Below are positions 612 to 59,713 of a DNA stretch of 64,000 nt, in pieces. The stretch is from a virus. Lineage: Duplodnaviria; Heunggongvirae; Uroviricota; Caudoviricetes. The first letter of the stretch is position 1. Each line of letters begins with the position of its first letter. Below the pieces are notes generated by a model. That model saw nothing but the letters and a program-made list of their open reading frames with translations, searched no databases and was not told where the DNA came from. The position numbers and the translations under genes were made by a program. The stretch lies in the IMG/VR virus record IMGVR_UViG_3300046516_000964. One strand, written 5' to 3'.

Positions 612-615
<4 letters not shown>
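289..615 (-). CDS. Minor tail protein (Thr/Gly-rich)
   Basis: 108-aa ORF directly downstream of the collagen-like gene on the minus strand, with a 4-nt overlap. Confidence 0.45.
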
Positions 616-2402
<1,787 letters not shown>

Positions 2403-3153: not shown

Positions 3154-4140
3154 CTACGCAACCGCTCCGTGGAAGTAAGCACCGAGATCCGTACCGACGA
3201 TCTTCGTGGTGAACGCGAGCTCACCCTCGATCCGGACAGTACCGATCCCCATCCACGGCATCGGGATCTGGCTGATCCGGGAACCGAACGCGCCGGCGCC
3301 CAGAAGCGCAGTCCACGTGAAGATGTACACGGACGACGGAACCATGATCCCCGGCTGCGGCTCCGCGTACAGAAGCAGAGCGTCCTTCTCAGGAGCGATG
3401 AACGCGAAGCTGTCCGTCGCACCCTCAAGGGCGGTGTTCTCGATCGCCGCAGCGACGATCACCTGGAAGTCGTTCACACCCGGAGGGGCGATCAGAGAAG
3501 CGAGCAGCTCCGTCGTGACCACACCACGCTGGGTGTACTTGATGCGCTGAACGAGCTCATCGAGGTTCTTCAGGACCTGCCAGACCTTCGCGCCAAGCAC
3601 GAGCCGGTTCGGGAAACGCCCGGTCGTCTTCTTGATCGCCCAGATCTGAGCCTCGATGTCCTCCAGCGGTGTTCCGTTCGCCGCAGACCACAGCGGGGAC
3701 GGAACGATGTCTCCGCCCGTTGTGGAGCCAGTCCACGTCGAGGTCGCCATGACGGCGGTCACGACCTGGATCTCGCGGGAAAGCAGCAGACGGTGCGTGA
3801 TCCACAGGGTTGCGTCACGGTCCGCGTTCAGCGGGTCGTCCGTGTTCGCACGGATCTGCGGGTCCACCATCTTGTGCAGTGCGTACACCGGGCACTGGTA
3901 GCTGTCCGTGGTCACGTTGTAACCGGAACCAACAGACTCAGTACCAGGCGCGCGCTGCGCCGCCTCATCGCGGAACCAGTCGCCCTTCGTGTACCGGAAG
4001 TACAGATCCGACTGCTTCTGCACGGGCACAACAGGGGCGATCTTGTCAGCGATGTAGTCGTTCGAGTCCTGCATGTACGCGGTGCTGATGTTCGTCAGCG
4101 GCCGGTTTACATGGACTTGGGTAAGAGTTGGCTGAGGCAT
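3154..4140 (-). CDS. Major capsid protein
   Basis: 328 aa, encoded downstream of portal, protease and scaffold. Size and composition are typical of an HK97-fold major capsid protein; the 404-aa antisense ORF is spurious. Confidence 0.6.
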   Translation of the reverse strand: MPQPTLTQVHVNRPLTNISTAYMQDSNDYIADKIAPVVPVQKQSDLYFRYTKGDWFRDEAAQRAPGTESVGSGYNVTTDSYQCPVYALHKMVDPQIRANTDDPLNADRDATLWITHRLLLSREIQVVTAVMATSTWTGSTTGGDIVPSPLWSAANGTPLEDIEAQIWAIKKTTGRFPNRLVLGAKVWQVLKNLDELVQRIKYTQRGVVTTELLASLIAPPGVNDFQVIVAAAIENTALEGATDSFAFIAPEKDALLLYAEPQPGIMVPSSVYIFTWTALLGAGAFGSRISQIPMPWMGIGTVRIEGELAFTTKIVGTDLGAYFHGAVA

Positions 4141-4160: not shown

Positions 4161-4577
4161 CTATGTAGACAGCCCGGACGGGCTGAAGATGATTGAGGAA
4201 GTGTCGCCGGTTACGCCCGCGAGAATGGCGAAACCGAGAACCTGGCTGCCGGTGCCGAACCCGGTTGAGTTCGCGGCAACCGTGTACTTCACGGCCTGGC
4301 CGGTGCTGTTCGAGGAAATCGGATCACCGATCGCGAACGAACCGCCGGCGATGACCTTGCTGATGCCTCCGTACCGGACCTGAGACCGGACAGGAGTGGC
4401 AGCCGTACCGTTCGGAGTGTCCTGCAGAACGCCTACCGCGCGGGGACCCGTCACGCCGCTGCCGGCAGTGGCCAGGAACCCGGACGAAGTCACCCGAACG
4501 AAGTAGAACTGGTTGCTCGACAGATCCGTGTTCGCGAGGAACGTGGTGTCGAGGCCGACATTGGTTTCGACTGCCAT
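4161..4577 (-). CDS. Hypothetical Ser/Thr/Gly-rich virion protein, possibly a decoration protein or a glycosylation substrate
   Basis: 138-aa ORF between the scaffold and major capsid genes; S/T-rich C-terminus SSIIFSPSGLST. Confidence 0.45.
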   Translation of the reverse strand: MAVETNVGLDTTFLANTDLSSNQFYFVRVTSSGFLATAGSGVTGPRAVGVLQDTPNGTAATPVRSQVRYGGISKVIAGGSFAIGDPISSNSTGQAVKYTVAANSTGFGTGSQVLGFAILAGVTGDTSSIIFSPSGLST

Positions 4578-5782: not shown

Positions 5783-8194
5783 TTATTCGTTTGAAGCGAC
5801 GTTACCGCCGCTCGTAAACCAGTCGGACGCCTGAGGGTTCGCGATAAAGCTGCGCTCAAGAACGTCCGGTGGTACGTGCATAGACCGACGGATACCCGAG
5901 CCACCGATCGAGAACCCCGTGTACTTGCCGGCAAGAACGTCCTGCCACACGTCATGGTCCTCAACGTGGACGCACATCACCCACGTCCCTTTCTTCACCA
6001 TCTCTTTCCCGTCCAGGGTGAAATCCACCGGTGCGATATAGGACTCCACCGGAACCACCCCGGGCTTGTCGCGGAAGAAACTCTTCGCCTGATGCTGCAG
6101 CTTCGTCACCGTTGCTTTCCCGCGAGCAACCTTCTTCAGATAACCGTGTGCGGCTTTCTCCACCTGGTCGGGAAGCATGAAATCGTCCTGACTGTCGAGA
6201 GCGTTCGGTTCGAGCACAACCCCGTAGACGAGCTGCTTGTACCCGTCAGCTTTATGAACACGGAGCTTCACGTTCGCGTTCATATACGCGACAGACAGGT
6301 CCTTCAACGGCTTGTTGCGATGCACCGACTGCAGCGTTGGTCCCATGCTGCCAACCGGAACTTCGCTCGTAGCAGCGGGTGTCATCGCGGCGAGAGTCCC
6401 CGCTGACGGCATCTCCGAGGAGCCCATCGGTGAGTCGCCCGCCGGCGGAGCACCAGCACCAGGAGCAAAGTCCTTGACGAGGCGTCCGCCGGCAAGGGCC
6501 TCCAACTCTTTCCACGAATGAGCTGCGTCAGTGTAAGCACCCGCGACGTTCGGGTTCAGCCAGCGGTAATCGCCGTCAGCGTCCTGCGCGAAATCAGCAG
6601 CCTGGACTTTCAGGATGTCGCCCTTCTTCGCTTTCATCCTGCTGCTGTTCGTGCGACCCACGTAGTGACCGTCACGGGTGACCATCCGGTACACGTTCCC
6701 TCCGTCTGGGTGGCGCAACACACCGTTCACGCGCAAATGCAGTATGGCGGCGTGCGCCTGTCCTTTCGTGACGACCTCCTTCACGCTCATCTTCTTGCCG
6801 GCGTCGATCTTGAACACCGTCGCCGGATCGATCTTGTCAGCCTCGATCGCAGACGTGTCGATCTTCGAACGCGGGCCCTTCCCGCCGATCCATCCTTGGG
6901 CGAGCTCGACGTTGCGCGAGTGAGTGACGAGCGCGATCGTTTTCCCGCCATCGGCCTGCTTGAGTAGTTTCTCCAACGCCGGCACGAACCTGCCCTTGTA
7001 CTCGTTGAAGGACTCACCACCATCAACGGGCTCATCGGCTTTCGTGGTCATGTACGGCGTCAGCTTCGGGATCACGTCAGCGGACGAATGCCCGGCGAAC
7101 GAACCAAGATTCCACGGCCGGTAGCTGCGATCAGCTTTCACGGAGGCACCGCACTCACGCGCAGCTATGTCCGCTGTCTGCTTCGCGCGCTTCAAATCGG
7201 ACGCGTAGATCTCCTCCACCCCAGCGTCCTTGAAGAACTTGCCGAGCTTCTTCGCCTGCACCTTGCCGGTGTTGTCGAGCGGAATATCTCTCCACCCTTG
7301 CACCACATCATGTGGCTGCCCCGGGCGGTTGTACCGCGTTTTCGCGTGCGAGACCATGTACAGGGAACCGTTCGCTTTCTGCACCTTGTCCCAGGCGCGT
7401 GAATCATGGAGCTCCCAACGCACAGCACGGGAGCGCTTCATGTGATCCGGGTCCCACCAGGCGGCAACCTCAACCCCGTCACCGTCAGGATCGTCGGGGT
7501 TCATCACCTTGCGCTCGCCGTTGATCTTCACATTCGCCTCGGAAGGGACCTCGTGCACGAAACCCTGGTAGATGCCTGACTGCCATTGCCCCACGTGCCG
7601 TCCTCGCGGCAGGCGGACGCCCATTTCCTCCTGCCACTCGCGCTTCGCGCCCACATAGGGATGTTCGCCATCGTTCAGGCACCCACCGGGAAACTCCCAG
7701 CAACCAGCCGCCGGGTCCTTCGCGTTGTTGCTCGCGCGCTGAATCATCAGGACTCTGCCTGTGTCCGCAGCACGAACAGCCATACCAGCGGCCGTTACGC
7801 CAGCCTTCCAAATGAACCCCTCCGGGTCCGGTTCCAAGGCTCCGAGAAGATCCCTCAGCCCCTCGGGTGTGTCGGGCGGGGCCGGTGCCGGCGCGGTGTA
7901 CATCGGCGCGATTGCCGGATCCTCCTTCGTGACTATTCCCTCCCAGGCGTCGCACGTGTCATCAGCACCCACGGGAGTGTCGTCAAACATCGTGCAAACA
8001 CCATGGTGGAACCAGTCACATGTTCCGCACGACACGTCACTAAACTCCGCTTCGCGCAAGTTCGCCCACCCGGGGATCTCCTTCTCGACGTGCTCTGGCA
8101 GCTTCCCCTCGTTGTCGAAGTGGTGCTCCTTAACCCAGTCATGCCCGAAACGGGCGTTCAGAAAGGCGCGCTGAGCTTGACTACGTGCGGGCAC
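5783..8194 (-). CDS. Multidomain virion protein: Cys-cluster N-terminus, NUDIX hydrolase, histidine-phosphatase (PGM-like) domain and XkdF-like prohead protease
   Basis: Perfect Nudix box GGCLNDGEHPYVGAKREWQEEMGV. Histidine-phosphatase-like segments VSHAKTRYN...GWRDIPL...IYASDLKRAKQTA...LVTHSRN. C-terminus LVYGVVLEPNALDSQDD...GTWV...GKYTGFSIGG matches the XkdF-type phage protease. GTG start. Confidence 0.75.
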   Translation of the reverse strand: MPARSQAQRAFLNARFGHDWVKEHHFDNEGKLPEHVEKEIPGWANLREAEFSDVSCGTCDWFHHGVCTMFDDTPVGADDTCDAWEGIVTKEDPAIAPMYTAPAPAPPDTPEGLRDLLGALEPDPEGFIWKAGVTAAGMAVRAADTGRVLMIQRASNNAKDPAAGCWEFPGGCLNDGEHPYVGAKREWQEEMGVRLPRGRHVGQWQSGIYQGFVHEVPSEANVKINGERKVMNPDDPDGDGVEVAAWWDPDHMKRSRAVRWELHDSRAWDKVQKANGSLYMVSHAKTRYNRPGQPHDVVQGWRDIPLDNTGKVQAKKLGKFFKDAGVEEIYASDLKRAKQTADIAARECGASVKADRSYRPWNLGSFAGHSSADVIPKLTPYMTTKADEPVDGGESFNEYKGRFVPALEKLLKQADGGKTIALVTHSRNVELAQGWIGGKGPRSKIDTSAIEADKIDPATVFKIDAGKKMSVKEVVTKGQAHAAILHLRVNGVLRHPDGGNVYRMVTRDGHYVGRTNSSRMKAKKGDILKVQAADFAQDADGDYRWLNPNVAGAYTDAAHSWKELEALAGGRLVKDFAPGAGAPPAGDSPMGSSEMPSAGTLAAMTPAATSEVPVGSMGPTLQSVHRNKPLKDLSVAYMNANVKLRVHKADGYKQLVYGVVLEPNALDSQDDFMLPDQVEKAAHGYLKKVARGKATVTKLQHQAKSFFRDKPGVVPVESYIAPVDFTLDGKEMVKKGTWVMCVHVEDHDVWQDVLAGKYTGFSIGGSGIRRSMHVPPDVLERSFIANPQASDWFTSGGNVASNE

Positions 8195-8375: not shown

Positions 8376-9803
8376 TTACGCGTGTTCGCCTTTGGATCCG
8401 GATGCTTCGGCGTCTGACGCCGACTGACCGGTCCCAGAGAGGGAACGCGGACTGAAATCGTGGCCCTTCGTGACCTTCGGCATGCCTGCCTGCTCGTTCA
8501 TCCACGGGAGAGCGGTCTCCCAGTCGATCGGGGCGCCCGCGCGACCGATCCGGTTGATGAAGTTACCGAGGGTGTCGAGGTCAATCGTCTCCGGGTTGCC
8601 GTGGCAGAGCTTCGGCATCTCGTCCTTGCGACCGTTCAGCTCCCACAGTTTCGGGATCACCTGGGTGTTGAACCCCTCACTCATGATGTCGAGGAACGCG
8701 CCGATTCCTACCGTCAGCAGATCTTTCTTCGTGATCGCGAGCGCGTAGGAACCAACCTTGTCCTGCCCCATCATCACCACGTCGGAGAGAACGCTCATCG
8801 CCATCCGTGTCTCGTACCTGGTGATCACCTGGGTGGTGTCGAACTGTCTTGAACCGGCGGAAGCCATCAGGGTGAGCTCCCACCCGAACGGCAGGATCAC
8901 TCCTTCCTGCTCGTCGCGGCGGATCGAAGAAACCACGTTCTTGGCCTGCTGGAACATTGCGGCCATCGCCGGGTCGTTCAGATCCCAGATGTCCACGCCC
9001 TCCGGCGGGATGAGAACAGGCAGGCCGGCCAGGTCGCGCTCGATCCCGATCGCCTCGATCTGCTGAATGTTCTTCACGAACCACCAGGAGCGGTACGCGT
9101 TGCGCAGGACGCTACGCCCCTCCGGGTTATCCTTGAAGATCGTGGTGCGCAAATGCAGCGCTTTTTCACGTGGAATGAACCGGAGCAGATAGTCGGGCGG
9201 GGGGTTCTGGATCATCCCGAGAATGTCACCGGTCTCATCGAACACCCATTTCCACAGTGAGTCCTGCGCCCTCAGGGCGATCTTCGCGAGCCCGATCTGC
9301 CCGTCGGTGAACTTGCTGTTCTGCGCTGGGTTCCGCGAAGTACCCTCGCGGCGCTTGTAGCAGAGCTCGTTGTAGCTGTACCCGTACGGGAGGAACGACA
9401 TCAGTTCGCTGATCGTGTCGGGCCACGAGAACTGCATGTCGTTGATGACCTCGTTCATCCACTTCGAGCCCGGCGTGTCCTGCTCCTCGAACCACCAGGT
9501 GACGCGCCGCATAAGCATCTGAATCGCGTACAGGATCGCCCCGATGATCGGGTCCTGATCCGACATTTCGCGGTAAACCTCGGCTGCGCGACGCCCCTGC
9601 TGGAGCTGCTGCAGCCACTCCTCGAAAACAAAGCCGCCCCAGTGGCGGAGACCGGAGCGGCCGTACTCCTCAAAGATGTTGGCGCCGTACCCCATCGTCT
9701 GCGCCGAGGCGGCTTTCGTCAGGACGATAGGGTCGCGAGGGCCGAAATCCCCCCGGAAAACCTTGATCGCGGGGACCCCGCCGTTCTGTTCGGCGATCAG
9801 CAT
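8376..9803 (-). CDS. Portal protein
   Basis: 475 aa, encoded upstream of the protease, scaffold and major capsid genes; size and composition consistent with a phage portal. Confidence 0.65.
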   Translation of the reverse strand: MLIAEQNGGVPAIKVFRGDFGPRDPIVLTKAASAQTMGYGANIFEEYGRSGLRHWGGFVFEEWLQQLQQGRRAAEVYREMSDQDPIIGAILYAIQMLMRRVTWWFEEQDTPGSKWMNEVINDMQFSWPDTISELMSFLPYGYSYNELCYKRREGTSRNPAQNSKFTDGQIGLAKIALRAQDSLWKWVFDETGDILGMIQNPPPDYLLRFIPREKALHLRTTIFKDNPEGRSVLRNAYRSWWFVKNIQQIEAIGIERDLAGLPVLIPPEGVDIWDLNDPAMAAMFQQAKNVVSSIRRDEQEGVILPFGWELTLMASAGSRQFDTTQVITRYETRMAMSVLSDVVMMGQDKVGSYALAITKKDLLTVGIGAFLDIMSEGFNTQVIPKLWELNGRKDEMPKLCHGNPETIDLDTLGNFINRIGRAGAPIDWETALPWMNEQAGMPKVTKGHDFSPRSLSGTGQSASDAEASGSKGEHA

Positions 9804-9815: not shown

Positions 9816-10601
9816 CTATCGGCAGCGGTGATGGCGTCTCATTTCATCGACGAGAATGCCTTTGTTTCGCTCCGCCCGCAGGAGCATGCTGTCGGCTTTC
9901 GTGGTGTAGTTGAGGAGGGTCTCGTTCACGCACGCGAACCGCGCTTTCCGACGGGTCAGGTCGATCCACATGTCCCAGTCCTCGTACCCGCCGCTGATAC
10001 CGGGCCAGCCGGCCATCGCTGGGTGGTACCCGCCGATCTCACGGAGAAGCTCGGTCCGCATCAAAGCACAGTAGAAGTACCTGTTCATCGTCCACAGGAG
10101 TTTCTCCGTCACATTCGCGAGAGGCATGTCGTAGCCCGGCATGTAGTCGCGGTTCCGTGGGGCATCCCCATGCTCCTGCAGTCCGACCAGGACAACGTCA
10201 GCACCCGCCTTGATCACCGGTAGGGTGAGCTCGATGTAGCGCGAGTCGATCCAGTCGTCGGAGTCGAGCGGGAGGAAGAACTCCCCTTTCGCGAGCATCA
10301 GAGCGGTGTTCCGCGCTGCCGGCAAACCCCTGTTGGTGATCTTGGTCGTGCGGATTAGAGGGGAGTACTCCGTCATGAGCACCGGGATATGGGGCTGCTC
10401 CGAACCGTCGTCGACGATGATGATCTCGCGCGGTTTAACGGTCTGGTCGAGCGCGGACTGGACCGCTCTCTCGATGGTCTCCTGCGACTCGTTGAAGTAC
10501 GGGATGCACACCGTGACGCCGTGCGCTCTCGCTTCATCCCGCTCCACGATGTGCTTGTACATCTCGCCGGTGACGAGAGGCTGGGTGGTGCTCATCCCCA
10601 C
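9816..10601 (-). CDS. Glycosyltransferase family 2
   Basis: VCIPYFNESQ...IIIVDDGSEQ and DSDD (DXD): canonical GT-A / GT2 N-terminal signature. Confidence 0.75.
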   Translation of the reverse strand: MGMSTTQPLVTGEMYKHIVERDEARAHGVTVCIPYFNESQETIERAVQSALDQTVKPREIIIVDDGSEQPHIPVLMTEYSPLIRTTKITNRGLPAARNTALMLAKGEFFLPLDSDDWIDSRYIELTLPVIKAGADVVLVGLQEHGDAPRNRDYMPGYDMPLANVTEKLLWTMNRYFYCALMRTELLREIGGYHPAMAGWPGISGGYEDWDMWIDLTRRKARFACVNETLLNYTTKADSMLLRAERNKGILVDEMRRHHRCR

Positions 10602-11620
10602 CCCAGGCTCGAGAAATCATCGTGGTAGATCATGTTCGTCCAGTCTCGCTGCTTCTCCCAGACCTCCCTGCGCCCCTCCGGGATCGCTCTGTACATCTCA
10701 CCGATCGACCTATTCGGGTCGGCCTGGGTGCCGGCACCATGCTGGTGAGCCCAGGAGAGCATGAAGCTGTTGTTGCAGAAATCGTTGTTCTGGTCCCTGG
10801 GCTGCGCGTTCAGAAACTCGAAGGCTTCCGTGGGATTCACCTGGAATCTCCGCCAGTAGTCAGCGATCCAGTTGCGCCCCCATGATCCTGCCGCCTCACG
10901 GTTGTTGATGTACACGTAGTTCTCCCTGGTTGGATGCCAGAAATCGATGTACCAGTCGAGGTGCATCGCGTCGCACGGAGGACCGACCCTGGCGGTGTTC
11001 ATGCGCAACCGGTTGAACACCCTTTCCCTCCGGAACAAATGGAAGGTCGTGTCGATCTGCCAGCACGAGTAGGGGATCTCACCCCACCACGACATCGTGT
11101 CCTTGTAGAGCAACCTCGATTCGAGAGCGCACACGCGGCTGCGGAGCGGGTACCCGTGCGACAGGCCAGCGTCGACGCTGGTGTGCGGTCCGACCGCGAG
11201 CTCTGTTTCTTGCGCGATCTCCACGTACACCCGAAACGAGTCAGGGTTCGATTTCTCGAAGCAGATGTCGGCGTCCGTAACCGCGTACCAGTCGCCGCTA
11301 GTGGAACGTGAGTTCTTCGCGAAAGCCTCGTTGAAATGAGCGGTGAGTTCGTCGTAGTCGCTGATCTTCGGGAAGCGCTCCACGATCAGGACCTCCGGGT
11401 AGCTGTCGACCTCGTCGAGCGCGTTCAGCGCCTGAGGGTCGTCGCTGCCGTTGTCGATCACGATTACCTCGTAAGGGTGCGTCTGCTCCCTGAAAGAGAG
11501 AATGGTCCTGGTGAGAGTCTCGATCCGGTTGTAGGTGGAGAGGAAGATCGTGATCACAGGGCCGCGATCATTTCTGCGGTCAGCCTGTCGCGCTCCTCCG
11601 GATCCGGGACCTGCATCCAA
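10592..11620 (-). CDS. Glycosyltransferase (GT2-like)
   Basis: ITIFLSTYNRIETLTRTILSFREQTHPYEVIVIDNGSDD. Confidence 0.7.
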   Translation of the reverse strand: MDAGPGSGGARQADRRNDRGPVITIFLSTYNRIETLTRTILSFREQTHPYEVIVIDNGSDDPQALNALDEVDSYPEVLIVERFPKISDYDELTAHFNEAFAKNSRSTSGDWYAVTDADICFEKSNPDSFRVYVEIAQETELAVGPHTSVDAGLSHGYPLRSRVCALESRLLYKDTMSWWGEIPYSCWQIDTTFHLFRRERVFNRLRMNTARVGPPCDAMHLDWYIDFWHPTRENYVYINNREAAGSWGRNWIADYWRRFQVNPTEAFEFLNAQPRDQNNDFCNNSFMLSWAHQHGAGTQADPNRSIGEMYRAIPEGRREVWEKQRDWTNMIYHDDFSSLGWG

Positions 11621-12258
11621 TGAGATCCGTTCGTGAGATGGAGCCAGTCACCGATGATCTCAACCCCGGATGACTGCAGGCCGTAGTCGTCTGGCTCGCG
11701 GATAAACCTGTAGCCGTGCTCCATCGGCCACATGTTCTCCCACACCTCGTGTTCGAACAACGGCCAGTTCGCTGAGCCACAGTCCCCGTCGTCTCGTTTG
11801 TCTATCCCCCTGATCCCGTCGAAGTTCGGGCGACGACCATCAAGCCAGGAGCGGCTGAAGAAACAGAACCCGGGCCATAGGTAGAGAGCTCCGGTGGGAG
11901 CGTGACGCTGCCCGATCCCGTAGAACCCTGTTTTCTCGATCTTCTCGATCAGGGTTGTCTCCTGTCGAGGGAAAATGTCGTGGTCGAGGAACCCGAAGAA
12001 CTCGGCATCGGTGCTGTCGAGCGCGTGTTCACACGCGAAATCGAGAGCTTCGCTGTGGAGGTGATCCTCGGAAGGTGAGCGCATGTACCCCATCTGGCTC
12101 CCCTGGCAGATCAGCTCCATTTCTGGGACCGCCTCCGGTGTGTTGTCGATGACGGTGACCCCAGCGCTGTCACGCAGGTTCTTCCTGATCAGCCTGATCT
12201 GATGCCTAAGCAGGTCGGGGCGTCCGAACGCGACTATGTAGAGGTCGATTGAGGCCAC
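11554..12258 (-). CDS. Putative glycosyltransferase (GT-A-like)
   Basis: IDLYIVAFGRP...VTVIDNTPE N-terminal beta-alpha motif as in the neighbouring glycosyltransferases. Confidence 0.5.
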   Translation of the reverse strand: MASIDLYIVAFGRPDLLRHQIRLIRKNLRDSAGVTVIDNTPEAVPEMELICQGSQMGYMRSPSEDHLHSEALDFACEHALDSTDAEFFGFLDHDIFPRQETTLIEKIEKTGFYGIGQRHAPTGALYLWPGFCFFSRSWLDGRRPNFDGIRGIDKRDDGDCGSANWPLFEHEVWENMWPMEHGYRFIREPDDYGLQSSGVEIIGDWLHLTNGSHWMQVPDPEERDRLTAEMIAAL

Positions 12259-12803
12259 AACCTCACCAGTCCGTGTTCGCTCGGGGCTTCACGCATGTCG
12301 TAGCCTCCGCAATGCTTCAGGTAGTTGCGTACCGCAGTGCTCGCCTCGCTGATCCCGGCGCCAGCATCATGGATGAGGATGACAGCATGCTTGCGGCGCT
12401 CGCGGAGAGCAACCAGGTTGTCGTAGGTGTCCTGGTAGACGTGGTGGTCGTCGATCAGGATGAGTGGACGTTCTTTGCCGTGAGTGAGCGCCATCGTGAT
12501 CGTAAGCCCGTTCCCGTGGTGGAGAGTGATATCGAGGCCCTCAAGCAGGGGCGGTGTCCCCTGGTCAGCGTTCTCGATCGAATGCACCGGGCATGGGCTC
12601 AATGTGGACGCCTCGTAGAGGAGCCGGGCACTGTTACCTGCGTTTGTCCCCCACTCGCAAATGATGTCGGGTCGCAACCTAACGACGGTGTCGCAGACAA
12701 GCTGGACGTGGTCGTGCGGGAACCCGTTCAGGCGGAGCTCGTCGATCCTGTCGATCGCCTGATTAGCGGTCTCCACGCTGCTCCTTGGTTTTGTCAAGCG
12801 CAA
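12234..12803 (-). CDS. SAM-dependent O-methyltransferase (TylF/MycF / CmcI-like)
   Basis: ICEWGTNAGNSARLL (SAM motif I, ExGxxxGxS) and LILIDDHHVYQDTYDNL, as in sugar O-methyltransferases. Confidence 0.55.
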   Translation of the reverse strand: MRLTKPRSSVETANQAIDRIDELRLNGFPHDHVQLVCDTVVRLRPDIICEWGTNAGNSARLLYEASTLSPCPVHSIENADQGTPPLLEGLDITLHHGNGLTITMALTHGKERPLILIDDHHVYQDTYDNLVALRERRKHAVILIHDAGAGISEASTAVRNYLKHCGGYDMREAPSEHGLVRLWPQSTST

Positions 12804-13416
12804 CTAGCCGGCGCTCATATTTCTTCTCCCACTGGGTGAGATACCACGTGTCGTCGTCCGGGTAGCAGTAGCTGGGATCGAGCACGACTTCGGGCAGGTT
12901 GTGCGCGAAGCAGGCGTTCAGTGCGGACTCGTCATGCCACACCGGTGTGCGCCCTCTCTTGACGTCGTGGTCGATGAACTTCGCGATTAGCGTGGAGAGG
13001 GACCGCATCGCAAGCGAACACCCGCCAACGAAACCACCGCAGAAGTAGCGTTCGCCTTTCGCAACCCGAGTCCACATTCCTTCCCTGGTCTCATAGGGAA
13101 AGTCGGTGCGATTGACGTAACCGGGATGAAGAGTCGCGGTGCAACCATGCTTGGGGAGAATCTCGGGCCCGACTTCAGCTTCGAACAGCATGTCGGCGTC
13201 GCTGAGAAACACGTAGTCGGTTTCCGGGTAGTTCTTGATCAGATGGTGATGTCGGTACATGGTCGCCGCCGGCCAACCAGGACTCCCGTACAACATCAGG
13301 AGCTCGACTGTTTCCGTGGGGTGGAAGAACTTCTCGGCTGAACTGAAAAGACTCTCGGCGAAATTCTCGTACGCGGAGCCACTGACGACACACACGAGGG
13401 TCGTTGTCTCAGCCAT
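12763..13416 (-). CDS. Putative nucleotide-sugar glycosyltransferase (GT-A fold)
   Basis: VCVVSGSAYENF... and YVFLSDADMLF (DXD). Confidence 0.5.
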   Translation of the reverse strand: MAETTTLVCVVSGSAYENFAESLFSSAEKFFHPTETVELLMLYGSPGWPAATMYRHHHLIKNYPETDYVFLSDADMLFEAEVGPEILPKHGCTATLHPGYVNRTDFPYETREGMWTRVAKGERYFCGGFVGGCSLAMRSLSTLIAKFIDHDVKRGRTPVWHDESALNACFAHNLPEVVLDPSYCYPDDDTWYLTQWEKKYERRLVALDKTKEQRGDR

Positions 13417-14308
13417 CCCTTCCCTCCGCGAGCGCGAACTCGATCGTGTTCAGCGACTCCCTGTAGGTGAACTCCGCCGTGATTTTCTGCTGAGCCCTGA
13501 CACGGTCGAGGAAATCGTTGTGACGGACTGACAGAGCCTGGGAGAGCATCTCTGACACGTCGGTGGTGGCGCTCGGATCATCGAACAACGCGTTGACGAC
13601 CTTGCTGTTTGAGAACACGAGCGTCCCGTAAGCAGAGTTCTTGAACGCCCGGCAGGGGATGTAGTCGTGGTCGCACTGCCACTGACCGACCACGGTTGGG
13701 GCGAGTCTCGCCCCACGGATCGCGTCGATCATTTCCCGCTCGCTGATCTGAGTGAGATGCTTGAACGTGAGCCCATTCTCCTTGCACGCAGCACGGAGCT
13801 CCCTGATCGCGTCCTCGTTCCCCATCTCGACCCCGCTGTGCTGGTCCGACCAGATGGCCCCGACGAACACAACCTCGCGACTCATCGAGCTGAACGTTGG
13901 GTCTTCGAACTCCTCGGCGAGAAGATCAACACCCCAGGGCTGAAACAGGGTTCTCGCCTCCCTGTCGAGCTTTCGGTACGGGGCGATCATCTCCCCGGTC
14001 GCGTCGTTCGTCCACACTTGCAACCGAAGGAGACGCTCGGGTGTCTCTTGGAGCGACTGGCAGAGAGGGTGGTCCCCGGAGAAGTTGTGGAGAACGTAAT
14101 CCACGTTGGGCACGTAGGGAATGTGTTGCCCATAGATGTCGGCTGAGATGACCGTGTCTCCGGCCTGAATGGTGTCGAGAGGGTCTGGTGCGTCGGGCAA
14201 CCACCTGACGGTGACCCCCATTTTCCGGGCGGCGTTCACGAAGCCGAAGTGGATCCAGCGATGGCTTTCAGCCCCCCTGGTCCCGCCCCACACGATCAAC
14301 CTGTCCAT
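13409..14308 (-). CDS. Hypothetical protein in the glycosylation island (possible GT-B-like C-terminal domain)
   Basis: 299-aa ORF with coding-type GC3 bias, embedded among glycosyltransferase genes. Confidence 0.45.
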   Translation of the reverse strand: MDRLIVWGGTRGAESHRWIHFGFVNAARKMGVTVRWLPDAPDPLDTIQAGDTVISADIYGQHIPYVPNVDYVLHNFSGDHPLCQSLQETPERLLRLQVWTNDATGEMIAPYRKLDREARTLFQPWGVDLLAEEFEDPTFSSMSREVVFVGAIWSDQHSGVEMGNEDAIRELRAACKENGLTFKHLTQISEREMIDAIRGARLAPTVVGQWQCDHDYIPCRAFKNSAYGTLVFSNSKVVNALFDDPSATTDVSEMLSQALSVRHNDFLDRVRAQQKITAEFTYRESLNTIEFALAEGRDG

Positions 14309-14592
14309 GGCGTCACCCCCGATCGTCTAAAGAGATCCTCGGCGCGAGCAATAAACGTGCGGAGAGGGAGATCGCATTCGTCTTCCGCAAACGGGAGAGC
14401 CTCCACCAGCCCCTGCTGGAGTTCCCAGATGATGTCGATCAGGTCGTCTTCACGCTCCTTCGCTTGCGCCCGAGTTTGTTCGAGCTCGGTCGTGAGTCTC
14501 AATCGTGTCTGGTGTTCCCTCTCAGCGTTCTCCAACCGCTCTGACTCGTAACTTGTTACGAGGTTTCTCATCTGTTGACGAAGATCATTCAC
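14296..14592 (-). CDS. Hypothetical coiled-coil protein
   Basis: 98-aa ORF that fills a gap in the operon; GTG start; contains a palindrome copy read in frame as LVTSYE. Confidence 0.35.
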   Translation of the reverse strand: MNDLRQQMRNLVTSYESERLENAEREHQTRLRLTTELEQTRAQAKEREDDLIDIIWELQQGLVEALPFAEDECDLPLRTFIARAEDLFRRSGVTPWTG

Positions 14593-15497
14593 GCGAAGCA
14601 GAGAGGGAGCTCGACATGGGCAGCGTTGATCCCCTCATGCTCGGGGAGAACAAGTCGTTTTCCTTCCATGTACTCCCTGTTGAGAGTGGTTGTGAGGACT
14701 GGGTGCGTTTCGCCGTTACGGTTCGGAAACCCGTCCTGAACAACGTTGATGGGGACACCGGTGATTAGGCTTCTCTCGTAGGACGCCATCATCGGATGAG
14801 TGTCATCACGCCCGAAGCATCGGTTTGTGAACGTGTCCTCAAGCCTGTTGGGCCCGGTGTAGTCCCGGCCTGCGAGTAGCTCTATCACTTGGTGGCGCCG
14901 GAACACGTGCCCGTCGAGGGAGCCCGGGTAACCCCAGTCGCCCATCGCGTTCGGCCACGACCACATGATCGTGTCGCGGAACCGCTCATGAATGATCGGC
15001 TGTTGCTGCTCGCAATCGTGCGGGTAACAGAACGTGGTGTTGTATCCAAGCCTGAGACTGAAACAGAGAATCTCCGGTGACTCTTGCAAAAGAACCTGTG
15101 GGGCCGGGTAGTCGTTGTATTCGCGCATGACGATGTCGTCGTCGCAGAGAAAGGAGACGAACGGCTCACTCGTTTTGTCGAGCATGTCTCCCACCTGTGT
15201 TTGGAAGCTGTGCTCATACCGGAACCCAACCTCCGTCCATTCGTTGATGAGCTGCTGGTATCCGTGCATGTAGTCGCTGTTGGTGGCGACCCAAAGCACC
15301 TCGATGCTGCTGAACAGCTTGGGTGCGCGCTCACGGATTGATCGGAGCAGCAGGTCCAGTTGTGCCGCGCGGTTGCGGCTGAACACGATCGCGCTGATCA
15401 AGGAGAACCATCCTCTCGTGGAGCTCATGGATTTTCTGGTGGTGCGCTTCCATCTTCTGGAGCCAAGCTCGGCCTTTCCAGAAGTAGAGCGCAACAC
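14589..15497 (-). CDS. Putative glycosyltransferase (GT-A); true start probably near 15428
   Basis: WFSLISAIVFSRNRAAQ...CDDDIV (DXD); the N-terminal 23 aa of the listed ORF are Arg-rich and unlikely to be coding. Confidence 0.5.
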   Translation of the reverse strand: MLRSTSGKAELGSRRWKRTTRKSMSSTRGWFSLISAIVFSRNRAAQLDLLLRSIRERAPKLFSSIEVLWVATNSDYMHGYQQLINEWTEVGFRYEHSFQTQVGDMLDKTSEPFVSFLCDDDIVMREYNDYPAPQVLLQESPEILCFSLRLGYNTTFCYPHDCEQQQPIIHERFRDTIMWSWPNAMGDWGYPGSLDGHVFRRHQVIELLAGRDYTGPNRLEDTFTNRCFGRDDTHPMMASYERSLITGVPINVVQDGFPNRNGETHPVLTTTLNREYMEGKRLVLPEHEGINAAHVELPLCFA

Positions 15498-15591
15498 CGA
15501 CCATAACGGACGCGAGGATGTTTGAATAGACCCCTCCGTCGGGCCAGTGGAACATGGTGTGCCAGAAGCTCATCGTTTGGGGCGTTCCCAC
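15331..15591 (-). CDS. Hypothetical small membrane protein
   Basis: One predicted TM helix (ILASVMVGVALYFW); overlaps the neighbouring gene, so weak. Confidence 0.25.
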   Translation of the reverse strand: MGTPQTMSFWHTMFHWPDGGVYSNILASVMVGVALYFWKGRAWLQKMEAHHQKIHELHERMVLLDQRDRVQPQPRGTTGPAAPINP

Positions 15592-15776
15592 CCAACCATG
15601 GCAGCGAGGCGCTCGTGGGTTGTTGGTGGGAGCAGGTAGTTGTCGAGGATCTCCTCGATCTCCGAGAGGAGAGCACGGAAAGCAACGGAAGCCTCCGTGT
15701 CCTCGAAGGGGAGGTTCCCGTCGAGGCGAGCGAGCTCATCAGCGACGCTCACCCGGGTAGTGCTTCCTGGTCCCAT
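15570..15776 (-). CDS. Hypothetical small acidic protein
   Basis: 68-aa ORF that fills a gap in the operon. Confidence 0.25.
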   Translation of the reverse strand: MGPGSTTRVSVADELARLDGNLPFEDTEASVAFRALLSEIEEILDNYLLPPTTHERLAAMVGWERPKR

Positions 15777-16045
15777 TCGATCAGGTCGTGCTCCCAGAGC
15801 TTCCGAACGACCCCGTTGTGCATGACCTCGAACACTCGCTCGGGCGGGAGAGCCGGGTTCAGCTTGTCGAGCGTTTTCACGACGTCACGGGGGTTCGCGA
15901 GGATAGTGGTCCCGTCGCGAAGCTTAAACCGGTATCGGTAGTCAGGCTGCGGGAACCGCATCGGGTTGGATAATCGCAATGGTTTCGGACGCCCACACCG
16001 GTTCACCGAGTTCCGAGTACAGGGCTTGAGCGTAGTCGAGATCAC
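15749..16045 (-). CDS. Hypothetical protein (start probably near 15960)
   Basis: The C-terminal 70 aa look protein-like (MRFPQPDYRYRFKLRDGTTILANPRDVVKTL...). Confidence 0.3.
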   Translation of the reverse strand: MISTTLKPCTRNSVNRCGRPKPLRLSNPMRFPQPDYRYRFKLRDGTTILANPRDVVKTLDKLNPALPPERVFEVMHNGVVRKLWEHDLIEWDQEALPG

Positions 16046-16541
16046 CGGAGTAGTGGTGTCCGAACCTGGCTTGCGTCCACGGGGCGAAGATCATGGGGGT
16101 ACCGATGTTCCCCCACCGGATCTGGTGACTGTTTGGGAGGGTGAGCCCAGAGGCTGGGTGGCCGGCGCCGAAGTGCATCCGGAAGATCGTCCACGGGTCT
16201 CCCATGTGATCGCGCATCGCCGGGATCGCCCCGAGTGCCGCAATGTCGTCATCGTCGATCGTCCACACATGTGTGGTCTCGACATGGTGTTCTAATGCCT
16301 TGTTCCTTAAGGGGTGGCCCCAGTGTCCGAGAGGTTCTTTCCGCTCCAGGTACCTGACCCCTGTGTTGGTACCAAGAGCGAAGGAGCTCGCAACGTTCCG
16401 AGCGCTGTGGCTTGGTCCGTCCGCGAGCACGATCACGTCGTCGGCTGCCGTAAGGTCATAGATGAACGAGCGAATCGTGTCAGCGAGGGCCACCCGTCCG
16501 ATGGTGGGGATGATCACAGTGATTCCCTCGCGCAAGCTCAC
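15942..16541 (-). CDS. Glycosyltransferase (GT2-like)
   Basis: ITVIIPTIGRVALADTIRSFIYDL...DDVIVLADGPS. Confidence 0.6.
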   Translation of the reverse strand: MSLREGITVIIPTIGRVALADTIRSFIYDLTAADDVIVLADGPSHSARNVASSFALGTNTGVRYLERKEPLGHWGHPLRNKALEHHVETTHVWTIDDDDIAALGAIPAMRDHMGDPWTIFRMHFGAGHPASGLTLPNSHQIRWGNIGTPMIFAPWTQARFGHHYSGDLDYAQALYSELGEPVWASETIAIIQPDAVPAA

Positions 16542-17065
16542 CTTGTGGGAACTTTCATCATCACGGTCGGGTCAGCGCCCTCCTGGAGTTGCTTGCGAGG
16601 GTTTAGATGCTCAACAGGGGGAAGATGGACGTGTGGCTGCTCACCGCGCGCAGCGAGTATATGCCGCATGAGAACCACGTCCTGCTGCTGCCACCCGACA
16701 CGAGAGGACTGGACGTAGTGCATCGCGTCCTGATGACGTTCAAGGATGGGTGCACGGAACCATGTGCATCCGAGGGCGGGCCCGACGTTGGTAAGCCACG
16801 AGTACGGGTAGCAACCGTAGTCGCATCCACAGGACTGGACGGCTTCGACAACGTCCTCCCGGATCACGATGTCGGGTTCGACGATCCAGAAGTCCTCACC
16901 GACAGCCCAGTAGGCGGTGAGGATACGCGTGTAGTGGGTGGGATCTCGTTTATCGATCAGGTGGGTGTGCCATTCGCCCGACCAGTGCCGCTCGATTGAC
17001 TGTTTCGTGTCGATGTGAATGACACCGGTGTGGCAGGTGACGATCTTCACCCGCCGCCAGACCAC
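16538..17065 (-). CDS. Hypothetical protein in the glycosylation island
   Basis: 175-aa ORF immediately after the terminase gene with a 19-nt overlap. Confidence 0.4.
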   Translation of the reverse strand: MVWRRVKIVTCHTGVIHIDTKQSIERHWSGEWHTHLIDKRDPTHYTRILTAYWAVGEDFWIVEPDIVIREDVVEAVQSCGCDYGCYPYSWLTNVGPALGCTWFRAPILERHQDAMHYVQSSRVGWQQQDVVLMRHILAARGEQPHVHLPPVEHLNPRKQLQEGADPTVMMKVPTR

Positions 17066-18507
17066 CGGTTAGAACCAGCCCCGCCACCGCCGATCACGAC
17101 AGGAAGAGCTGCCTGTGGCAGGTCCTGGTCTTTCTGCTCGGAAAGAACCGGGTTCTTGGGTTTCGTGTGGATCCTCCACGCCTCCGCCCCGTCCACGTCT
17201 GAGTGCCAGGGGGTTCCGTCGGCGGGGAGCGCAACCGGATCCATTTTTGCTGTTCTCCGCCACGGCATCCGTTTCACGGCGAGCGCCAATGCCATCGCGA
17301 GGTCGTCGGATCCGGACGGGACCTCGTAGCGGACACCCTTGATGCTGTAGGTGAACTCGAACGATTCGAGCTCCTCGCGGAGGGAGCCTTTCCCGTCGCT
17401 TGTCCGTAGGTCGGGAAAACGGATGCTTCCCTCCTGAATCGCGAGCGCTAGTCCTTCGAGGAGATCCTGCCGGCTCCGATCGGTAAACGTGTAGCCGAGG
17501 ACGCGCATGTCACCGCGGCGCTGGAGGTCCTCAACGAGGGCATCGCCGGTGCCGGTCGAGTCGATCAGGCACATGGTCCGTTTCACCCGTTTCGTGACTT
17601 CGGTCATGGTTTCTCGGTGCGGCTTGCGGAACCGATCAACGTGGGTGGCGTTCCCTTTCCTGTCCAAGCAGACGATCGCGGTCCAGTCACGTGACTCAGC
17701 GTCACCAACTTTCTCGATGTTGATCGCTCCGCGCCCCGCAAGGTCGACGCCGGCAGCGAGAGCCATTTCCTCTGAGTAACCTGTTACGCCCTCGCAGCAG
17801 GAGGCGATCGCCGCGATTCCGAACGGGTTGGTGCCGTCGTCGAGCGCTTCCGCCATGTACAGCTGCCGGAACACTTCCTCCTGTCCGAGGCGGTCGAAGT
17901 CCCGTTTCGCGGATTCGATCTCGCCACGGTCGAGAACACCAGCCTGAACAGCGTCCCAAGCTGTAAGACGGTGAAACGCCATGTTGTCGGCGCCGGATTC
18001 AGCGAGACGGGAAAGGCGGTAAAACCAGTTTTTGCGCCCTCGCACGTTCCCGATGATCCTTACGGGCCCCTGTGTGTAGGTGAGGGTGGAACGAACAGCG
18101 TGCCATGATTCCTCGCGCATGCGGGAGGCTTCGTCGAGAACAGCCCCGTACACATCCTCGCCGTAAAGGTCGTCAGGGCGCTCCCCGGATTTGAACCAGA
18201 TGCGGGTCCCGTTCGGCATGGTGATGTACATGCTCGACTGGTTGCGTTTGCACATCGTTTTGATGGGTGTGACCATCGCCCAGCAGCGACGGAACGCGAT
18301 CTCCGCCTGCCCGAACACGGGGGCAACCCACCAGTAGTTCCAACCCGACCGTCCTTTCAGTGACTGCTCGACGATCCAGGCGAGACACCCAACGGTTTTC
18401 CCGGCTTTGGTGGACGCCTCAATGCAGCTGATCCGGTTTTCGTCGTAGATCGCCGCGCGCTGTTTCGGGTAGAGGGGAGCACCTTCGAAACGGATGGTGC
18501 GGGCCAC
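17047..18507 (-). CDS. Terminase large subunit
   Basis: 486 aa; Walker A-like IEASTKAGKTVG near the N-terminus; GTG start; first gene of the minus-strand late operon. Confidence 0.85.
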   Translation of the reverse strand: MARTIRFEGAPLYPKQRAAIYDENRISCIEASTKAGKTVGCLAWIVEQSLKGRSGWNYWWVAPVFGQAEIAFRRCWAMVTPIKTMCKRNQSSMYITMPNGTRIWFKSGERPDDLYGEDVYGAVLDEASRMREESWHAVRSTLTYTQGPVRIIGNVRGRKNWFYRLSRLAESGADNMAFHRLTAWDAVQAGVLDRGEIESAKRDFDRLGQEEVFRQLYMAEALDDGTNPFGIAAIASCCEGVTGYSEEMALAAGVDLAGRGAINIEKVGDAESRDWTAIVCLDRKGNATHVDRFRKPHRETMTEVTKRVKRTMCLIDSTGTGDALVEDLQRRGDMRVLGYTFTDRSRQDLLEGLALAIQEGSIRFPDLRTSDGKGSLREELESFEFTYSIKGVRYEVPSGSDDLAMALALAVKRMPWRRTAKMDPVALPADGTPWHSDVDGAEAWRIHTKPKNPVLSEQKDQDLPQAALPVVIGGGGAGSNRWSGGG

Positions 18508-32293: not shown

Positions 32294-32409
32294 TGAAGGG
32301 AGCTGTCGTGTTCTTCCTAGTCGTCTCGGCGATCGTCTTTCTTCTTGCGGCGTTCTGGTTTGTTGTGGCCTACGCGAAAGGAGGGAGTGATGAAGGAAGC
32401 GAACGGTGA
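32293..32409 (+). CDS. Small membrane peptide (38 aa)
   Basis: TAATGA junction with the upstream gene; MKGAVVFFLVVSAIVFLLAAFWFVVAYAKGG... Confidence 0.35.
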   Translation: MKGAVVFFLVVSAIVFLLAAFWFVVAYAKGGSDEGSER

Positions 32410-35776: not shown

Positions 35777-35800
35777 CGTCTAAAAGAGAGGAGATCGACA

Positions 35801-36571: not shown

Positions 36572-36572
36572 C

Positions 36573-37198: not shown

Positions 37199-37207
37199 CA
37201 TGAGGTT

Positions 37208-37278: not shown

Positions 37279-37296
37279 TGAAAGGGGTGATGATCG

Positions 37297-37557: not shown

Positions 37558-37566
37558 CTCGTTACG
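37553..37566. repeat. Palindrome variant AGTAACTCGTTACG
   Basis: 9 nt upstream of the GTG at 37576. Confidence 0.5.
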
Positions 37567-37575
37567 GAGGCTGAT

Positions 37576-58485: not shown

Positions 58486-59713
<1,228 letters not shown>

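Follow-up and report, generated by a model that had tools for sequence, protein, structure and literature searches.

Soluble glycosyltransferases and a methyltransferase encoded between the terminase and portal genes of a tailed phage, and their possible role in virion glycosylation

Gene organization and enzymes of the island

The window analyzed here is a 64,000-nucleotide stretch of DNA from an uncultivated tailed phage. Between its large terminase gene and its Mu-type portal gene lie 12 tightly packed minus-strand genes (9816 to 17050, about 7.2 kb); the flanking and head genes discussed below are on the same strand. Genes were called independently on the source contig (Logan SRR26076636, 78,353 bp), and the coordinates were then mapped to the window. 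These calls placed exactly 12 genes in the terminase-portal interval, and profile matches identified both flanks, in agreement with the first-pass annotation of a 12-ORF run at this site. However, it had placed the starts of several ORFs too far upstream; ORF 14589-15497, for instance, is now 14589-15401. The upstream flank is the large terminase, TerL (17047..18507; Pfam Terminase_6C, 4e-5, and Terminase_3), which also matched annotated TerL genes by tblastn. The downstream flank is the portal (8376..9803; Pfam Portal_Mu, 8.6e-27).

The terminase stop overlaps the start of the first island gene, 16538..17050, by 4 nt, and the last island gene, 9816..10595, is 12 nt from the portal start. Intergenic distances within the island are −25 to +20 nt, and the only sizeable gap (168 nt) directly follows 15570..15752. 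The reading direction of the island is that of its terminase and portal flanks and of the head genes. In a scan, promoter-like sites were not enriched, and no same-strand terminator between genes was convincing. The island is probably transcribed together with these genes late in infection; the packing is tight enough for the cotranscription proposed earlier. A single copy of a dispersed palindrome, CGTAACTTGTTACG, lies within the island at 14547-14560, inside ORF 14296..14571, and may be a sign of separate regulation. The GC3 of the island ORFs ranges from 0.63 to 0.84.

The island encodes seven glycosyltransferases, six with a GT-A fold and one with a GT-B fold. At least five of the GT-A/GT2 type had been proposed; all six ORFs listed at that time are supported, but the GT-B gene had been overlooked. 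Three GT2-family enzymes exceed the 23.3-bit cutoff of Pfam Glycos_transf_2: 15942..16517 (191 aa; 5.4e-7, 30.1 bits), 10592..11557 (321 aa; 1.6e-9, 38.3 bits), and 9816..10595 (259 aa; 2.2e-27, 96.5 bits). The 217-aa product of 12763..13416 belongs to the GT6 family (Pfam Glyco_transf_6, PF03414; 2.3e-21, 76.3 bits; cutoff, 25). It aligns with BoGT6a (PDB 4ayj, 3.7e-31) and matches the human ABO transferases (7e-15) and phrog_3317; its motif is D-A-D, versus N-A-N in Bacteroides BoGT6a. Because its score against NCBIfam Gltr_6 (5e-29, 101 bits) is below the model's subfamily cutoff of 250, it is a GT6 member outside the Gltr_6 subfamily.

The remaining GT-A enzymes are more divergent. The 234-aa product of 11554..12258 has no Pfam match itself, and its assignment as GT2-like is indirect, because PF00535 is found on several of its 169 homologues, one homologue being named GT family 2. 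Its DHD motif (D92 and D94) is invariant in 35 sequences, and a protein of this type is fused to a 9816-type GT2 in an Actinomycetota chromosome. The product of 14589..15401 (270 aa) belongs to no Pfam family. Structure comparison shows a Rossmann-like GT-A fold, and D87 and D88 are invariant in 48 sequences. The acidic DxD-type motif that follows the fourth strand of the GT-A fold is present in 11554, 14589, and 12763. The seventh enzyme, 13409..14308 (299 aa), is a compact GT4-like protein with the two Rossmann domains of the GT-B fold.

The gene at 12234..12776 encodes a 180-aa class I SAM-dependent methyltransferase. The earlier TylF/CmcI-like assignment stands at the level of the family profile only, because the single sequence falls under the Pfam cutoffs (Methyltransf_24, 0.0077, 17.5 versus 26.3 bits; RMNT_CmcI, 0.021, 15.0 versus 23.2 bits). 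A profile of 50 family sequences matched CmcI (PDB 2br3) at 1.6e-7 and the O-methyltransferases YrrM and 3r3h at 1e-3. In the SAM-binding motif I, E-W-G-T-x-x-G-x-S, residues W42, G43, T44, and G47 are invariant. The acidic/His metal site has invariant D109 and D137 and nearly invariant H112 and H136. These conserved residues correspond in the alignment to ELGVYNGGS and FIDDAH of CmcI.

Four smaller ORFs complete the island. The 170-aa product of 16538..17050 matched nothing in Pfam, PHROG, or NCBIfam and had no credible PDB match, and the gene is kept behind terL in the related contigs L001 (55% identity) and L030 (36%). The 70-aa ORF 15749..15961 (GC3, 0.79) has a 43% identical homologue in L001, and a family search with the 60-aa ORF 15570..15752 gave no match. 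The least convincing gene is 14296..14571 (91 aa), because it has the lowest GC3 of the island (0.63), contains the palindrome, and lacks a conserved counterpart in the closest relative; the corresponding slot of L001 holds a Methyltransf_11 gene.

None of the 12 products has a membrane segment. The highest 19-residue hydropathy, found in 9816, is 1.61, and the usual level for a membrane span is 1.6 to 1.7. Pfam and NCBIfam searches found no flippase, polymerase, or phosphoglycosyl transferase in the island.

Distribution and divergence of the island

The island is present in every related contig that extends past the portal on the upstream side. It lies between terL and portal in L001/L107, L114, L115, and L116, whose major capsid proteins (MCPs) are 72 to 95% identical, and in L030, whose terL is 50% identical. 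Homologues of 15942..16517 are present in L001 and L030, and those of 10592..11557 in L001, L030, L114, and L115. Across relatives, identity is 36 to 76% in the island versus 65 to 95% in the MCP, portal, and terminase. Between the window and L001/L107, the island genes are 43 to 76% identical, compared with 85% for terL, 87% for portal, and 95% for MCP. Accessory genes are also swapped in among relatives, including Methyltransf_11, -12, and -23, FkbM, NAD epimerase/GDP-mannose dehydratase, and HNH endonucleases. Rapid divergence of the island, together with gain and loss of methyltransferases and enzymes of deoxy-sugar synthesis, is consistent with a surface coat subject to diversifying selection.

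We defined a core module of five glycosyltransferase genes: 14589, 12763 (GT6), 13409, 11554, and 9816. This module is also found in phages whose terminase is unrelated. Linkage of the island to the head genes is not absolute, since in contig L032 it is found upstream of terL and behind a gene for sigma-70 region 4.

The core module is also present in Actinomycetota chromosomes, as fused multidomain proteins. A cluster from uncultured Actinomycetota (OY969809.1) and a Solirubrobacteraceae cluster (DASXEZ010000160.1) contain contiguous core enzymes with 29 to 53% identity to those of the phage (51 to 53% for 9816..10595). The enzymes are partly fused (14589+13409, 11554+9816, and 14589+GT6), and a protein combining GT2 and TPR domains is encoded nearby. 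Unlike the island, these are bacterial loci with 69% GC and giant multi-GT2 proteins, and there are no phage genes within 10 kb of either cluster. The native acceptor of the core module in these chromosomes is not a virion protein, which counts against a role of the island in virion glycosylation.

A companion enzyme and candidate acceptors

An eighth enzyme, of 515 aa, is encoded outside the island, in a structural gene block about 6 kb past the left edge of the window. A GT2 domain (Glyco_tranf_2_4, 6e-7) forms its N terminus, a second GT-A-like domain lies at the C terminus, and it also contains TPR-like repeats that score under the Pfam thresholds. In bacteria and in L032, the same domains occur alongside the core module. 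The best PDB match, a weak one (E = 0.0012 over about 100 residues), is GmaR, the flagellin O-GlcNAc transferase of Listeria monocytogenes. The two proteins share the combination of GT2 and TPR, but the phage protein differs in its second GT-A-like domain. Among the enzymes considered, the 515-aa protein is the leading candidate for recognition of a protein acceptor.

Three head-region proteins are candidate glycan acceptors. A 138-aa protein (4161..4577; phrog_673 head scaffolding protein, 2.8e-14) is encoded between the scaffold and the MCP. It had been described as S/T rich, and indeed 25% of its residues are S or T, including 8 of the last 20; its C-terminal SPSGL is kept in relatives. These features suggest it as a possible acceptor. 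By analogy with the mycobacteriophages Che8 and Corndog, the MCP (3154..4140; phrog_1005 major head protein, 1.6e-70) is another candidate, although it has no S/T-rich C-terminal extension.

The third candidate is a 596-aa collagen-like protein of the head-gene block (612..2402; Pfam Collagen, 2.3e-67). Of its 152 G-X-Y triplets, 99 have Thr in the Y position, and its identity in close relatives is only 54 to 63%, a variability equal to that of the island. The Bacillus anthracis exosporium glycoprotein BclA is reportedly a collagen-like protein of Gly-X-Thr repeats that carries O-linked oligosaccharides capped with a methylated sugar. By analogy, the repeats of 612..2402 are of a type that is O-glycosylated in BclA, and both pathways include a methyltransferase. 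However, collagen-like fibers with Gly-X-Thr repeats are also common among phages without a glycosyltransferase island.

Virion glycosylation and its alternatives

We suggest that the island glycosylates the phage's own virion proteins, the best supported of the readings considered, to which we give about an even chance. It draws on the position of the island, on the lack of membrane or lipid-carrier components, and on precedent. The coat would most likely be a variable methylated glycan on proteins of the phage particle. In this scenario, the island would be a phage-borne glycan-assembly pathway made of soluble enzymes only, which would act in sequence in the cytoplasm on host nucleotide sugars. 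The product may be a branched, partly O-methylated hetero-oligosaccharide that is attached directly to structural proteins before or during assembly. The likeliest acceptors would be surface-exposed head proteins, namely the 4161-4577 protein, the capsid protein, and the Gly-X-Thr collagen-like fiber of 612-2402.

The island may instead act on a cytoplasmic acceptor outside the virion. It could make an oligo- or polysaccharide that is free or independent of lipid, similar to the cytoplasmic polymethylated polysaccharides of Actinomycetota, or it could glycosylate host proteins, nonstructural phage proteins, or a small molecule so as to redirect host metabolism or block a defense. We consider this unlikely, because placement between terL and portal is kept across the clade with 72 to 95% MCP identity, an odd site for metabolic takeover, and because the companion GT2-TPR enzyme is encoded among structural genes. 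Divergence above that of the flanks is also more in keeping with a surface-exposed than with a cytoplasmic product. A product destined for the host surface is somewhat less probable. Late remodeling of the envelope, by receptor masking or serotype conversion, could prevent adsorption of progeny to debris or block superinfection. The PHROGs matched by 9816 and 12763 belong to the category "moron, auxiliary metabolic gene and host takeover," with GtrB-like O-antigen conversion among them, and close relatives of the core module occur in bacterial chromosomes (43 to 53% identity). However, the GtrB-like matches are limited to the generic soluble GT2 N terminus. The island resembles the GtrABC serotype conversion systems of temperate phages in being phage-encoded glycosyltransferases, but the defining membrane components of Gtr are missing: no island protein spans a membrane, and no GtrA-type flippase, bactoprenol-linked step, Wzx/Wzy, or ABC exporter was found by Pfam and NCBIfam searches. 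The genes also lie in the late structural operon rather than beside an integrase or immunity region, and there was no integrase among the precomputed Pfam matches at 18.5-57 kb. These observations weaken the host-envelope alternative relative to virion glycosylation.

Glycosylation of hypermodified hydroxymethyl-pyrimidines in the phage DNA, as a protection against restriction, is highly improbable. The T4 DNA glucosyltransferases are likewise phage encoded, but the scores for T4 do not exceed those for PimA, BshA, and WlaC and thus reflect generic GT-B similarity. Unlike in T4, a hydroxymethyl-base pathway was not found: the precomputed Pfam matches across the entire nonstructural region at 18.5-57 kb include no thymidylate-synthase-like protein, dCMP/dUMP hydroxymethylase, dNMP kinase, or phage DNA polymerase, an absence that is not absolute because many ORFs there have no Pfam match. 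The sole DNA-modification gene in that region encodes an N6/N4 methylase, and the known make-up of DNA glycosylation systems differs from six GT-A enzymes plus a sugar-type O-methyltransferase.

For virion glycosylation by soluble enzymes, one parallel is the chlorovirus PBCV-1, whose capsid is reportedly glycosylated by virus-encoded cytoplasmic enzymes, including A064R, said to combine two glycosyltransferase domains with a methyltransferase domain. Membrane-independent glycosyltransferases and a sugar methyltransferase are common to both viruses, and in PBCV-1 the methylated glycan is on the capsid protein. However, PBCV-1 is a eukaryotic giant virus whose glycans are atypical and N linked and whose genes are scattered, not gathered in a single operon island, and giant-virus glycosyltransferases were matched only at the level of the generic GT-A fold.

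Another parallel is Corndog (Cluster O), in which the genes between portal gp34 and protease gp39 encode an O-methyltransferase of the TylF type (gp35) and three glycosyltransferases (gp36-38). In the passages of PMC11600133 and PMC12363180 that cite Freeman et al. 2023, these four proteins are described as modifying the capsid and tail tube, and Che8 and Myrna are given as further virion glycosylation systems. The first-pass annotation had held that actinophage cassettes are small and located elsewhere in the genome; the location is wrong for Corndog, whose gp35-38 lie within the head operon (PMC11600133). A glycosylation cassette in a head operon therefore has precedent and is not new. The island and the Corndog cassette both combine a Methyltransf_24/TylF/CmcI-type methyltransferase with several soluble glycosyltransferases in the head-morphogenesis operon, adjoining the portal, and both phages probably have actinobacterial hosts. 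However, virion glycosylation is demonstrated for Corndog in these sources and is predicted for the present phage. The resemblance does not extend to detectable sequence similarity: tblastn at 1e-3 gave no match to Corndog 12-42 kb, and the methyltransferase pair gave a BLASTP E value of 0.03. If our reading is correct, the island would be a larger, sequence-unrelated version of the virion glycosylation known from a few mycobacteriophages. Of the contrast drawn earlier with actinophages, the greater size stands: 12 genes, seven of them glycosyltransferases, in 7.2 kb versus 4 genes in 2.75 kb, about 2.6 times longer. The island also lies upstream of the portal, whereas the Corndog cassette lies downstream, and its GT6 and GT-B enzymes have no counterpart in Corndog.

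Gene content of the terminase-portal island

The phage genome is about 78.3 kb, has a G+C content of about 60%, and assembles as a circle. Coordinate mapping to a 78,353-bp Logan contig (SRR26076636) identified the window as a permuted 64-kb piece of it. Proteins of the window recur on up to 12 contigs, the longest of which is 78,514 bp. It has no close relative among 50,697 phage records, in which the island had no megablast match. A cultured close relative is lacking as well; the closest TerL matches, from Thermus, Tunturiibacter, and Meiothermus phages, were just 24 to 29% identical.

The late genes are on the minus strand. The large terminase gene (17047 to 18507; Terminase_6C/Terminase_3, and TerL by tblastn) is followed by the twelve island genes (9816 to 17050) and by a Mu-type portal gene (8376 to 9803; 8.6e-27). 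Directly after the portal, the gene at 5783 to 8194 encodes an 803-aa protein in which NUDIX, histidine phosphatase (His_Phos_1), and XkdF-type prohead protease domains are fused. A probable scaffold gene separates this fusion from a 138-aa protein (4161 to 4577; phrog_673), which is followed by the major capsid protein (3154 to 4140; phrog_1005, 1.6e-70), two small proteins, and a 596-aa collagen-like protein recognized by Pfam (612 to 2402). The tethering of NUDIX, a nucleotide-diphosphate hydrolase, to a head protease is unusual, and the NUDIX and phosphatase half is missing in the homologs of three related phage contigs (L112, L114, and L115). This half could provide a link to nucleotide-sugar or ADP-ribose chemistry.

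The first-pass annotation had described twelve consecutive ORFs between terminase and portal, and independent gene calling gave exactly 12 genes in this interval. They overlap or are spaced by at most 20 nt, with a 168-nt gap as the one exception, and all have the high third-position G+C (GC3) of real genes in this genome. The island is real and had been correctly located; its start codons had to be corrected. An 80-aa hydrophobic ORF (15331 to 15573) that overlaps the start of gene 14589 (island genes are named by their lower coordinate) was left out: independent gene calling did not return it, and it shows no conservation in the closest relative.

The functions proposed in that annotation, at least five glycosyltransferases and a TylF/CmcI-like O-methyltransferase, were largely right. 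In profile searches, four products passed the Pfam curated cutoffs: 9816, 10592, and 15942 as GT2 and 12763 as GT6. On its own, 11554 had no match, and 12234 fell below the threshold. The 11554 family comprises 169 detectable proteins, several with PF00535, and its D-H-D motif is invariant. A profile of 50 representatives of the 12234 family matched the S-adenosylmethionine (SAM)-dependent CmcI (1.6e-7) and several O-methyltransferases, and its SAM motif and acidic/His site are invariant. The GT6 protein is nearest to Bacteroides BoGT6a (3.7e-31) and also resembles the human ABO transferases; it has a D-A-D motif where the metal-independent bacterial enzyme has N-A-N. The fold of 14589 is a predicted one, settled by structure prediction alone. 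Neither the 14589 nor the 11554 family profile had a significant match in the PDB, and hhalign of the two families against each other gave a probability of 1.3%. In a Foldseek search of viral structures, the 14589 model matched just generic GT2-like proteins (TM of 0.61 or less). When 14589, 12234, and 16538 were searched against the PDB as single sequences, the only matches were spurious ones to UpxZ, SurE, and designed SAKe proteins. In all, the island codes for seven glycosyltransferases and one methyltransferase. The other genes are 16538, which encodes a conserved 170-aa protein without an assigned function, and three small ORFs, one of which (14296 to 14571) is doubtful. No island product has a membrane-spanning segment, and in Pfam and NCBIfam searches none was similar to flippases, polymerases, initiating phosphoglycosyl transferases, or exporters.

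A fixed slot with rapid turnover, and its bacterial counterparts

The closest relative, IMG/VR 3300047160_007780 (L001/L107), carries this island at the same position, with island proteins just 43 to 76% identical to those of the window; the values for TerL, portal, and capsid protein are 85%, 87%, and 95%. Island genes also lie upstream of the portal in all the other relatives with contigs that extend this far, namely L114, L115, and L116; their capsid proteins are 72 to 76% identical, and their gene order is partly shuffled. The accessory genes differ among relatives and include Methyltransf_11/12/23 and FkbM methyltransferases and NAD-dependent epimerase/GDP-mannose-dehydratase genes. In a relative whose TerL is 50% identical (L030), more than 13 kb of island-type genes follow terL, including five methyltransferases and a GT92. 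In contig L032, where the terminase (TerL_ATPase) and portal (Phage_portal) are unrelated, six island genes lie directly upstream of the terminase gene. The island enzyme families have 169 to 269 detectable homologs each, many on phage-sized contigs, and the clade is represented by about 20 contigs of 57 to 79 kb. These comparisons indicate a cassette that is mobile among phage lineages, is usually located next to packaging and head genes, and is a turnover hot spot. HNH_3/HNH endonucleases, which are absent from the window, lie inside or beside the islands of relatives (L001, 15241 to 15639; L030, 19518 to 20012 and 3777 to 4289) and may drive cassette exchange.

The island is not a recent arrival, because its codon composition is that of the rest of the genome: its GC3 is 0.77, while structural genes have 0.75 and early genes 0.81. 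Recent gain from a high-GC host is rejected on these values. There are no direct or inverted repeats at the island borders. Some other relatives have the portal directly after terL. In two distant TerL relatives (L018 and L014), about six small ORFs separate these two genes; we did not count these as glycosylation islands, because none has a Pfam family. In two other distant relatives, the TerL match is in three pieces over about 3.2 kb (L020, 2554 to 5790; L021, 870 to 4106), which suggests a terminase gene broken up by inteins, introns, or inserted ORFs.

Members of the 14589 family are found widely across bacterial genomes (70 loci), and the closest ones are from Actinomycetota. In a 3.3-Mb uncultured Actinomycetota chromosome (L037), the core genes (14589, GT6, 13409, 11554, and 9816) are contiguous, 43 to 53% identical, and partly fused. 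There, 14589 and 13409 form one 583-aa ORF (9977 to 11728), and 11554 and 9816 form one 497-aa ORF (12371 to 13864). In a Solirubrobacteraceae MAG (L027), 9816- and 13409-like genes come after a fusion of 14589 with GT6 (10001 to 11488). Such fusions are an argument for the island enzymes acting on a single product. All proteins encoded by the bacterial clusters are soluble too; they include giant multi-GT2 enzymes as well as methyltransferases, and no exporter is obvious among them. The fused Actinomycetota homologs point to an uncharacterized, membrane-independent glycosylation system. Judging from the Actinomycetota matches and a Salinibacterium-labeled homolog, the phage host is probably an actinobacterium.

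A further glycosyltransferase lies in the structural block about 6 kb past the left edge of the window, on the contig that carries the window and its flank (L117, 18756 to 20303). Before it come the gene for a Kelch/collagen protein of 1058 aa and several small genes of the structural region. This 515-aa protein has an N-terminal GT2 domain (Glyco_tranf_2_4, 6e-7), TPR-like repeats that are below Pfam thresholds, and a second GT-A-like domain with a D-D-D motif. Its top PDB match, a weak one (E = 0.0012), is GmaR, the Listeria flagellin O-GlcNAc transferase. Because parts of this protein are found together with the core module, both in the two bacterial clusters and in the island of L032, it is probably an eighth enzyme of the island pathway. 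A glycosyltransferase combined with TPR repeats is the architecture of enzymes that recognize protein acceptors, and it is circumstantial evidence in favor of protein glycosylation.

Precedents, candidate acceptors, and alternatives

Known actinophage systems had been described in the first-pass annotation as small cassettes elsewhere in the genome. This is wrong for the Cluster O mycobacteriophage Corndog, whose cassette lies between portal gp34 and capsid maturation protease gp39. Corndog gp35 is a TylF/Methyltransf_24 O-methyltransferase, and gp36 to gp38 follow. Pfam matches identify gp37 as GT2-like and gp38 as GT25-like; gp36 to gp38 are all reported as glycosyltransferases (PMC11600133). 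The island resembles this cassette in both nature and location. It differs in that it is 2.6 times longer and has seven glycosyltransferases, including GT6 and GT-B types, where Corndog has three. Unlike the Corndog cassette, it is part of a widespread modular cassette family that is also present in bacterial chromosomes. Sequence comparison of the two detected no relationship, which places the island outside the Corndog/Che8 cassettes by homology. It probably works like them, and both the concept of phage virion glycosylation and the operon placement have precedent. Glycosylation of virions by phage-encoded enzymes is known from only a few mycobacteriophages, in which it makes antibodies recognize the virions less well.

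We consider cytoplasmic, stepwise glycosylation of phage structural proteins to be the best-supported reading of the island, with the chances about evenly balanced; the function is plausible but unproven. The island genes would be expressed together with the head genes, and their product would be a methylated hetero-oligosaccharide coat. A virion acceptor is supported by the fixed terminase-portal slot, by the GT2-TPR companion among structural genes, by divergence faster than that of the flanks, as expected of a surface feature, and, by analogy, by the Corndog precedent. The absence of membrane or lipid-carrier machinery supports it too and, with the late-operon position, weakens the idea that the island remodels the host envelope, which we regard as quite unlikely. 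The soluble bacterial clusters favor an alternative that we regard as unlikely, in which the acceptor is cytoplasmic but not a virion component or the product is a methylated glycan in free form. Glycosylation of DNA is very improbable: Pfam hits across the whole non-structural region include no hydroxymethyl-base pathway, and the similarity to T4 glucosyltransferase is generic to GT-B.

For virion glycosylation, the candidate acceptors we infer are the 4161 to 4577 protein and the collagen-like proteins. The former is 25% Ser+Thr, with a partly conserved S/T-rich C terminus; the capsid protein has no S/T-rich tail. The three collagen-like proteins (612 to 2402, 58482 to 59717, and L117 13437 to 16613), one of which is fused to Kelch repeats, have Thr at Y in 58 to 75% of their Gly-X-Y triplets. 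They are 54 to 63% identical between close relatives and thus as variable as the island. Collagen-like Gly-X-Thr repeats are of the type that is O-glycosylated in Bacillus BclA. A separate Kelch/DUF4394 protein is encoded at 56291 to 58300.

A fuller scenario, doubtful when taken whole, is that Gly-X-Thr collagen-like head fibers of this clade are coated with a methylated glycan that is hypervariable and of bacterial type. The GmaR-like GT2-TPR enzyme would start the chain on protein, and the swappable cassette between terminase and portal would extend it. HNH endonucleases would reshuffle the cassette, with the host's own cytoplasmic glycan clusters as the source. The glycan could mimic or match host surface structures, and island turnover would lead to antigenic or receptor diversification. 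In a small phage, such a coat would correspond to the glycosylated fibrils that Mimivirus has or to the BclA nap on Bacillus spores.

A set far larger than those of mycobacteriophages, and unrelated to them, fills a fixed head-operon slot in an environmental phage clade; it evolves faster than the capsid and recurs in phages with unrelated terminases. Together, the enzyme content, conserved slot, rapid turnover, bacterial fusions, and GmaR-like companion make a testable case that environmental actinophages commonly have complex glycan coats. Should the island product be attached to virions, such coats would be widespread among actinophages of soil and freshwater, and they would be diversifying. 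This would matter for host recognition, for particle stability, and for grazing and immune evasion, and the island would be a source of soluble protein-glycosylating enzymes.

A dispersed palindrome and the early region

A 14-bp palindrome, CGTAAC-NN-GTTACG, has 29 copies in the window with at most one mismatch, versus 0.04 expected (2843, 8367, 14547, 18642, 19530, 21005, 22297 ... 52855). Most copies that we checked are about 30 to 40 nt upstream of plus-strand early genes. The late operon has copies upstream of terL, in the island (within the doubtful ORF 14296 to 14571), immediately behind the stop codon of the portal gene, and downstream of the capsid gene. The palindrome is probably an operator or promoter element. 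A comparable dispersed palindrome is present in Cluster O phages such as Corndog (PMC11600133).

The early region (35800 to 38600 and about 32400 to 33000) encodes Ku, NADAR, cpYpsA, and Macro domain proteins, and also SprT-like, ParB_N, PDDEXK, RusA, and N6/N4 DNA methylase proteins. The predicted NADAR and Macro domains suggest reversal of ADP-ribosylation, i.e., counter-defense. Two tRNA-Lys(UUU) genes are predicted on the plus strand (21419 to 21515 and 37207 to 37279), one of which is atypical in being 97 nt long.
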